Assembly (NCBI RefSeq): GCF_044324875.1
Contig: NZ_CP172185.1
Length of the DNA: 64,000 nt
Source of the DNA: Escherichia coli
GTDB taxonomy: Bacteria; Pseudomonadota; Gammaproteobacteria; Enterobacterales; Enterobacteriaceae
Strand: one strand, 5' to 3'
Positions 40,921-41,677 of this stretch are shown in pieces. The notes beneath the pieces are model-generated. The model saw nothing but the letters and a program-made list of their open reading frames with translations. It searched no databases and was not told the origin of the DNA. A program made the position numbers and the translations under genes. Position 1 is the stretch's first letter. Every line of letters begins with the position of its first letter.

Positions 40921-41397
40921 ATGATATTATTTGTTGGATTTTTGTTGATGGAAATTGTTATGCCTCAGATTAGCCGGACCGCACTGGTACCCTACAGCGC
41001 GGAGCAAATGTATCAGTTAGTGAATGACGTTCAGTCTTATCCTCAGTTTTTGCCGGGTTGTACCGGAAGTCGGATTCTGGAGTCCACTCCTGGGCAGATG
41101 ACTGCGGCGGTAGATGTCTCTAAGGCTGGGATCAGCAAAACGTTTACTACCCGCAACCAGTTGACCAGTAACCAAAGTATTCTTATGAATCTGGTGGATG
41201 GGCCGTTCAAGAAATTGATCGGTGGATGGAAGTTTACGCCGCTGAGCCAGGAGGCGTGTCGTATCGAGTTTCATCTCGATTTTGAGTTTACCAATAAGTT
41301 GATTGAACTCGCCTTTGGTCGCGTGTTTAAAGAGCTGGCGGCTAATATGGTCCAGGCTTTTACGGTTCGTGCGAAAGAGGTTTACAGTGCCAGGTAA
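40921..41397 (+). CDS. ratA: Ribosome association toxin RatA (SRPBCC/polyketide-cyclase fold)
   Basis: 158-aa ORF (an alternative start at MPQISRT would give 145 aa); divergent from smpB. Confidence 0.85.
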
Positions 41398-41677
41398 AAT
41401 TGCCGTTGAGGTGGCTTATGCGCTACCTGAGAAGCAGTACCTGCAGCGCGTGACGCTGCAGGAGGGAGCGACGGTTGAAGAAGCTATTCGCGCCAGTGGT
41501 TTGCTGGAATTGCGTACCGATATCGATTTAACTAAAAACAAAGTCGGCATTTACAGCCGTCCGGCCAAACTGAGCGATACCGTGCATGATGGCGATAGGG
41601 TGGAGATTTATCGTCCTCTCATTGCCGATCCGAAAGAGCTGCGCAGGCAACGAGCAGAAAAATCAGCGAATAAATAA
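41387..41677 (+). CDS. ratB: UPF0125 protein RatB (YfjF)
   Basis: GTG start at 41387 gives (M)[26 protein letters not shown]..., 96 aa, overlapping the ratA stop by 11 nt; the track ORF 41303..41677 is an upstream extension. Confidence 0.8.

Follow-up and report, generated by a model that had tools for sequence, protein, structure and literature searches.

The ratA-ratB operon of Escherichia coli: start codons, promoter, gene overlap and relationship to Coq10-like and RnfH-family proteins

Organization of the ratA-ratB locus

The window analyzed in this work is a 64,000-nt stretch of the Escherichia coli genome (RefSeq assembly GCF_044324875.1, contig NZ_CP172185.1), in which two small, overlapping genes of the plus strand are located next to smpB and ssrA (Table 1). 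Direct reading of the sequence gives a first open reading frame (ORF) of 158 codons, from ATG 40921 to TAA 41395-41397 in its longest form, and a second one of 96 codons, from GTG 41387 to TAA 41675-41677, whose frame is +2 relative to that of the first. In Pfam searches, the former matched Polyketide_cyc (START; PF03364, E = 1.3e-38) over residues 23-148 of the long ORF and the latter matched Ub-RnfH (PF03658, E = 1.9e-35) over residues 5-87, which argues that both are real genes and not chance ORFs.

A preliminary description of this region, made from the sequence alone, had named the two genes ratA (yfjG) and ratB (yfjF), and the alignment with E. coli K-12 MG1655 bore these identities out. 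The RatA protein is 100% identical to that of K-12, RatB agrees at 95 of 96 residues (T65 here, S65 in K-12), only 12 nucleotide differences, mostly synonymous, were found over 757 nt, and the 131 intergenic nucleotides upstream of 40921 are the same in both strains. The locus corresponds to ratA-ratB (yfjG-yfjF, b2619-b2618) of K-12 and to pasT-pasI of UPEC CFT073; K-12 shares with the window the 11-nt gene overlap, the GTG codon of ratB, the upstream intergenic region and the neighbors smpB, bamE and recN. Several complete E. coli genomes match the stretch 40200-42200 (2 kb) at 100% identity, and the 2-kb ratA-ratB region is present in 5425 of the 5426 complete genomes of this species.

As the preliminary description had also stated, the pair is divergent from smpB-ssrA, since smpB and ssrA (the latter encoding a tmRNA with the tag ANDENYALAA) both lie on the opposite strand. 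The true start codons of smpB and ratA are 170 nt apart. Downstream of ratB there is an intrinsic terminator (RNA fold of -20.7 kcal/mol, z = -5.8), followed by bamE, recN and nadK on the minus strand.

Table 1. Features of the ratA-ratB locus (positions within the 64,000-nt window)
Feature	Position	Strand	Basis
ssrA (tmRNA), tag ANDENYALAA	39730..40092	-	ARAGORN; Rfam RF00023, 292.8 bits
smpB, divergent from ratAB	40307..40789	-	Pfam, NCBIfam, annotation
13-codon N-terminal extension of the old K-12 ratA annotation, holding the -10 of the ratA promoter and the 5' leader	40921..40959	+	K-12 annotation, conservation, literature
Extended -10 element TGATATTAT (TGnTATTAT) of ratAB	40922..40930	+	Conserved block; published -10 in the ORF
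Putative weak Shine-Dalgarno GGAA for the Met14 start, 6 nt before the ATG	40950..40953	+	Conserved G.AA block
ratA (yfjG/pasT; proposed ubiM), 145 aa, START-domain, Coq10-like, ubiquinone-binding	40960..41397	+	PGAP, NCBIfam, conservation, literature
Shine-Dalgarno GAGG for ratB, within ratA codons (K-E-V), 6 nt before GTG 41387	41377..41380	+	Conserved in nearly all Enterobacterales
11-nt overlap of the ratA 3' end (…AGT GCC AGG TAA) and the ratB 5' end (GTG CCA GGT AAA)	41387..41397	+	Direct reading
ratB (yfjF/pasI), GTG start, 96 aa, RnfH-family ubiquitin-like β-grasp protein	41387..41677	+	Pfam, NCBIfam, PDB, start conservation, RefSeq
Bidirectional intrinsic terminator common to ratAB (+) and bamE (-)	41685..41713	.	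13-bp stem between A- and T-runs

On the far side of ssrA, the window strain differs from K-12. The adhesin-like autotransporter gene ypjA/ehaD (34866-39569) directly abuts ssrA (39570-39730 region), whereas in K-12 the 22-kb cryptic prophage CP4-57 (intA …) is placed between ypjA/ehaD and ssrA; the window strain therefore lacks CP4-57, which follows ssrA in K-12. A tRNA with the anticodon CAT at 31775-31850 was called tRNA-Met by ARAGORN, and by its position relative to ypjA in the K-12 gene order we take it to be probably ileY (tRNA-Ile2, lysidine-modified CAT). Matches at Rfam gathering scores were also obtained for the MicA sRNA (2468-2539), the Phe leader (pheL, 57959-58084) and the RyfD sRNA (61390-61528), all of which are expected for this chromosomal region. 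Two antisense ORFs inside ratA (41017..41274 and 41043..41210, minus strand) were rejected as they lacked independent support.

Conservation of the smpB neighborhood

For the comparative analyses, 80 loci (one genome per species) were collected from an alignment of diverse RnfH-family proteins, and they represent Enterobacterales, Pasteurellales, Alteromonadales, Aeromonas, Photobacterium, Methylococcaceae and Betaproteobacteria. It should be stressed that the gene identities, start codons, overlap, conservation of the promoter motif and synteny reported here come from this analysis; the transcription start site (TSS), initiation at Met14, binding of ubiquinone-8 (Q8) and non-toxicity are taken from the literature.

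Of the 71 loci in which ratA and a sufficiently long upstream flank are present, 68 have a divergent smpB next to ratA, and bamE is also present in 58 of these 68. The order smpB<>ratA-ratB<bamE<recN is shared by Enterobacterales, Alteromonadales, Aeromonas and Photobacterium, and smpB<>ratA-ratB is retained in Betaproteobacteria as well. In Pasteurellaceae the arrangement has been lost: seven loci carry ratB alone, with no ratA adjacent to it, and two carry ratA-ratB without smpB. The tmRNA gene itself was detected (with ARAGORN and blastn) within the fetched flank of ±4 kb in 52 of the 80 loci. The conserved proximity to the tmRNA system, claimed in the preliminary description, is hence seen for smpB in nearly all loci and for ssrA in the flank of these 52. 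The window contains the smpB-START-RnfH-smpA(bamE) neighborhood as delineated by Iyer et al. 2006 (PMC1779556); the smpB-ratA-ratB arrangement was described there and by Hudson et al. 2014 (PMC4131195).

Several Enterobacteriaceae loci (L003, L008, L016, L004, L006, L007, L009-L012, L017 and L022) lack ssrA over about 2.9 kb from smpB. The ORF that follows smpB in L003 and L016 encodes a giant Ig-repeat, BapA/SiiE-like adhesin, and in L008 type 1 secretion genes (ABC transporter, HlyD-like) follow smpB; in Citrobacter, Kluyvera and related genera an island with a BapA-like adhesin and a type 1 secretion system (T1SS) follows smpB instead of ssrA. In four betaproteobacterial loci (L056, L060, L070 and L074; Hydrogenophilales, Sulfuriferula and related MAGs), the gap between the starts of smpB and ratA is only 17 nt, and both promoters must therefore lie inside the neighboring coding sequences.

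Start codon of ratA and the ratAB promoter

The preliminary description had let ratA begin at 40921, where the longest ORF has its first ATG, directly 3' of an in-frame TAA. This start is a mis-annotation carried by K-12, whose record still gives ratA as long (477 nt), whereas PGAP records place the start at 40960; the latter is also the position in the current RefSeq/PGAP annotation of an identical E. coli record. The gene starts at the ATG at 40960 (Met14 of the long ORF), 39 bases inside the annotated frame. Among 71 related loci with a complete ratA N-terminus (73 when the window and the identical E. coli record L001 are counted in), the codon aligned to Met14 is ATG without exception (71/71). 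The NCBIfam equivalog model NF007999 covers the long ORF only from residue 14 on, and the Caulobacter protein 1T17 aligns from residue 7 of the short RatA, co-linearly and with the same numbering. The conserved ATG, the start of the model, the PGAP annotation and the 1T17 alignment together lead to 40960.

The 13 upstream codons behave differently. In 38 of the 71 loci there is no in-frame ATG, GTG or TTG upstream of Met14 before a stop is reached, the putative extension peptides of the loci are unrelated to each other and not conserved, and an ATG at position -13 is found only in 13 close relatives. Experimental data are available for this part of the gene: the M14I substitution abolishes the protein, M1S only lowers the mRNA, and the only native product is RatAΔ14 (Fasnacht et al. 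2025, PMC11988751). The extension is untranslated under native control, although a stress-specific promoter located further upstream might, in view of the published work (PMC11988751), produce the long RatA.

What the extension does hold is promoter DNA. In an alignment of 47 upstream regions of Enterobacterales, the annotated Met1 ATG falls within the conserved block aAATGnTAttAT and supplies the TG of the extended -10 element TGATATTAT, and because it sits in this block we consider the annotated Met1 of ratA to be a part of the promoter. The motif TGnTAnnAT was present in 57 of the 71 loci, and in most cases its end lies 29-30 nt upstream of the Met14 ATG. Its position agrees with the published TSS, which was mapped downstream of Met1 by primer extension and dRNA-seq, as well as with the published effects of M1S and of mutants of the σ70 -10 box inside the annotated ratA ORF (PMC11988751). 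A simple σ70 consensus scan called no plus-strand promoter for ratA, the -35 region being poor, and the ratAB promoter is accordingly based on conservation and on the published TSS and not on the consensus scan. The exact hexamer of the extended -10 is what we infer from the aligned sequences.

Two further elements of the intergenic region are worth mentioning. On the minus strand of 40921-40954, two σ70-like matches point toward smpB (TTTCCA-17-AATAAT and TCAACA-16-TATCAT); being consensus matches only, they overlap the AT-rich block that serves as the ratA extended -10, and smpB and ratAB could possess a back-to-back pair of divergent promoters. Just upstream of the ratA promoter, a hairpin resembling a terminator and a subsequent T8 run (AGCGCCGGGATAGCGTTTTTTTT) lie on the plus strand at 40886-40908. 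In Enterobacterales the T-run recurs as a conserved block (tTTTt.TtT), and this hairpin/T-run may be a -35 or UP-like element rather than a terminator.

Start codon of ratB and its overlap with ratA

The 11-nt overlap of the two genes, noted in the preliminary description, was confirmed by direct reading, and the GTG start proposed there for ratB is upheld by conservation: 49 of 50 Enterobacterales loci keep GTG together with GAGG 6 nt upstream. The start codon lies 3-6 codons before the conserved I-x-V-E-V strand in Enterobacterales, and across the RnfH family the called N-termini begin 1-8 residues before this strand. In 21 of 27 more distant loci the homologous start codon is ATG. Overlaps of 8, 11, 17 or 20 nt between ratA and ratB occur within Enterobacterales, and 18 of the 20 distant loci (β/γ-proteobacteria) with an adjacent ratA have overlaps of 4 or 8 nt.

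Independent support for the start comes from codon-position conservation in 49 Enterobacterales sequences (the window and 48 loci). Upstream of the GTG, the least conserved position is the third of the ratA codons (0.59), which corresponds to the second position of ratB; after the ratA stop, it is the third of the ratB codons (0.55). At the overlap, the pattern thus passes from the frame of ratA to that of ratB, which supports GTG 41387. The same analysis showed that RatB is under purifying selection. In the RatB protein search, the matches listed were at least 81% identical and all named ones were enterobacterial, and these do not inform the choice of the start.

Other starts were weighed as well, i.e., GTG 41369, TTG 41315 and TTG 41303 (giving up to 124 aa) or GTG 41411 (88 aa), since in the window the frame is open back to 41303 and some gene callers give longer versions of 125-149 aa. 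None of these codons has a Shine-Dalgarno sequence. GTG 41369 is absent from most relatives, which have CGC, CGA or CGG there, and it arises only where the ratA Arg codon is CGT, i.e., through the wobble of Arg CGN. TTG 41303 and TTG 41315 are not conserved either, and they are excluded by in-frame stops that lie upstream at a distance of 15-20 codons in several Enterobacterales and of 5-13 codons in a number of other loci. Any longer ratB would also have to accommodate the fact that the variable position upstream of 41387 is the third of ratA and the second of ratB, and a start at GTG 41411 would cost the Pfam domain, which begins at residue 5, its first β-strand residues. A pattern of conservation pointing to a different start, named in the preliminary description as the observation that would speak against its GTG, was looked for and not seen, and the chance that ratB starts at any of these codons is close to negligible. 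As judged from the sequence comparison, ratB starts at GTG 41387.

Conservation of the ratB Shine-Dalgarno sequence and of the overlap suggests translational coupling, and the 11-nt overlap is likely the site at which ratB is coupled to ratA; ratB is co-expressed with ratA, as judged from its strong decrease upon deletion of ratA (Fasnacht et al. 2026, bioRxiv 10.64898/2026.05.04.722385).

In Acerihabitans arboris (L048, approximately 3840-4000), the distance from the ratA stop to the conserved RatB domain is about 156 nt. The GTG typical of ratB, with its GAGG and the 11-nt overlap with ratA, is kept 56 codons upstream, the frame being open, and the gap reflects either an N-terminally extended RatB or an insertion. 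A similar gap, of 91 nt, occurs in L073.

RatA as a Coq10-like ubiquinone-binding protein

The RatA protein aligned co-linearly from its N-terminus with the Caulobacter protein CC1736 (PDB 1T17; E = 1.7e-19), with which, as with Coq10, it has in common a Polyketide_cyc/START domain over the whole length. This domain, together with the homology to characterized members, places RatA in the Coq10/START group. RatA/PasT was recognized as the bacterial homolog of Coq10 by Fino et al. 2020 (PMC7424257), who found respiratory and membrane-potential defects in the ΔpasTI/ΔratAB mutants; the ΔratAB/ΔpasTI phenotypes were complemented by ratA alone and by human COQ10 (PMC7424257). More recently, RatA was reported to co-purify with Q8, to occur in the cytosol as well as at the membrane and to interact with UbiF and UbiG in the BACTH assay, and the name UbiM was proposed (Fasnacht et al. 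2026, bioRxiv 10.64898/2026.05.04.722385). The likeness to mitochondrial Coq10 extends to complementation by the human protein and to the Q8 binding of RatA described in the literature; unlike Coq10, RatA has no membrane anchor or presequence. Another difference concerns the gene context, as β/γ-proteobacteria pair RatA with an RnfH-like gene, whereas mitochondria and α-proteobacteria are without that gene (PMC7424257).

In databases, the locus is known under another function. The NCBIfam/PGAP family name is "type II toxin-antitoxin system toxin RatA" and the K-12 product name is "ribosome association toxin RatA", and with type II toxin-antitoxin (TA) modules ratAB shares, besides this label, the look of two small, overlapping, co-transcribed genes. 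According to this reading, ratAB would be a type II TA-like module, in which the RatA toxin binds the 50S subunit and prevents 70S formation, with RatB as the possible antitoxin. When Zhang & Inouye 2011 over-expressed the 158-aa ORF, growth was indeed arrested and polysomes were reduced (as reproduced in PMC11988751), and Norton & Mulvey reported that co-expression of pasI relieved the toxicity of long PasT in liquid culture (as cited in bioRxiv 10.64898/2026.05.04.722385). Toxicity, however, needs the 13-residue extension, which is off the native mRNA (PMC11988751) and unconserved in relatives, 38 of the 71 loci being unable to encode one. The long RatA showed no specific association with 50S (PMC11988751), and no toxicity was found in CFT073, MG1655 or Salmonella by Fino et al. 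2020, who saw no behavior of a TA system either (PMC7424257). Inhibition of 70S formation by RatA, which the preliminary description had given as established knowledge, is on these grounds an artefact of over-expressing the extended ORF (PMC11988751; bioRxiv 10.64898/2026.05.04.722385).

The resemblance to TA organization, pointed out in the same description, proved superficial. Neither the TA operon logic (antitoxin first) nor a patchy, mobile distribution is seen in ratAB: the order is reversed, with the supposed toxin gene coming first, and from Enterobacterales to Betaproteobacteria the locus belongs to the syntenic, vertically inherited core (5425/5426 in E. coli). According to the literature, ratB can be deleted and the deletion strains are viable, and neither a RatA-RatB complex nor neutralization was seen in the original work. 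In contrast to type II TA modules, ratAB has neither a native toxin nor a demonstrated neutralizing complex, and the product of ratA is a START/Coq10 protein that binds Q8 (bioRxiv 10.64898/2026.05.04.722385). We consider a TA function of ratAB extremely unlikely. RatB is not an antitoxin; the caution voiced in the preliminary description, that it is not a demonstrated one, was correct, and the literature describes no RatA-RatB complex. Some interplay between RatA and RatB may exist, given the pasI observation of Norton & Mulvey.

RatB, a member of the RnfH family

RatB scored 154.7 bits against the NCBIfam model NF002490 (cutoff 75) and was similar to Haemophilus HI0395 (PDB 2HJ1; E = 3e-28) and to RnfH, a subunit of the Azotobacter vinelandii Rnf complex (8AHX_H; E = 1.4e-13). 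With its single β-grasp domain of the size typical for the RnfH family (Ub-RnfH, UPF0125; about 85-100 aa), it belongs to the same Pfam family as HI0395 and the RnfH protein of Rnf1 (8AHX chain H). Unlike rnfH of Rnf1, ratB lies outside an rnf/rsx operon and follows ratA beside smpB; a ratB preceded by ratA and outside any rnf/rsx operon is the situation of the window and of 73 among the 80 related loci.

The K-12 product name of RatB, "putative component of the Rsx system", already hinted at a role in this membrane complex. The likeliest role of RatB would be that of a cofactor-less accessory or docking subunit, either of a membrane redox system of the Rsx/Rnf type or of RatA itself. A more specific version, in which RatB would be the "missing" RnfH-type cytoplasmic subunit of Rsx or an adaptor docking RatA-carried ubiquinone to a membrane redox complex, is speculative and rather unlikely in our estimation. 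It gains indirect support from the homology to 8AHX chain H, from a two-hybrid assay in which a Legionella RatB-like protein binds an RnfB-like protein (literature), and from a common Keio phenotype, as one read-through screen with 30 hits picked up ΔyfjF together with rsx and ubi knock-outs. In this screen ΔyfjF lowered the read-through of UGA and UAG; ΔyfjF was not complemented there. A literature search for YfjF and Rsx yielded only this screen, and tagged RatB was undetectable (Fasnacht et al. 2026, bioRxiv 10.64898/2026.05.04.722385). No rnf genes were found beside the stand-alone ratB genes of Pasteurellaceae, the neighbors of which encode an ABC ATPase and a molybdopterin oxidoreductase, and the gene context therefore gives the Rsx idea no support.

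The position beside smpB brings up another role, in which RatB would work with trans-translation (SmpB/tmRNA), e.g., as an RNA-binding, TGS-like β-grasp protein, a possibility raised by Iyer et al. 2006 (PMC1779556). Such a role would explain the conserved neighborhood, with a divergent smpB in 68 γ- and β-proteobacterial loci and smpB-ratA gaps down to 17 nt, and it is in line with the lowered UGA and UAG read-through of ΔyfjF. Yet rsx and ubi genes were likewise hits of the read-through screen, which suggests a metabolic route, ratB persists in Pasteurellaceae, where the smpB neighborhood was lost, and the nearest characterized relative of RatB is a subunit of a redox complex (8AHX_H). A part in trans-translation is very unlikely for these reasons.

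Conclusions

The locus is the chromosomal housekeeping operon ratA-ratB of E. coli, and the following account of the operon as a whole is highly probable. Its transcription is driven by the σ70 extended -10 promoter TGATATTAT (40922-40930), placed inside the formerly annotated ratA ORF; as the mRNA is devoid of the annotated Met1, ratA is translated from ATG 40960. The resulting RatA (145 aa, START, Coq10 homolog) binds ubiquinone-8, and it has been proposed to act as a Q8 shuttle between the cytosolic Ubi metabolon and the inner membrane, aiding aerobic respiration. The ratB gene is co-transcribed with ratA and translated from GTG 41387 by means of GAGG in the last ratA codons, the 11-nt stop/start overlap probably coupling its translation to that of ratA, and the operon ends at the bidirectional terminator common with bamE.

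Published accounts already exist of the locus and its neighborhood, of the gene overlap, of the wrongly annotated ratA start and of the Coq10-like function. The value of the present analysis for annotation lies in the fact that databases still pass on both the label "toxin RatA" and the long ORF of K-12. The comparative data independently confirm that the Met1 codon is a part of the ratAB promoter and that ratA starts at 40960, and likewise that the GTG of ratB and the stop/start overlap are conserved. If the tentative idea of RatB as an Rsx subunit or adaptor were true, the translational coupling of ratA and ratB would set the stoichiometry of the quinone carrier and the RatB adaptor.
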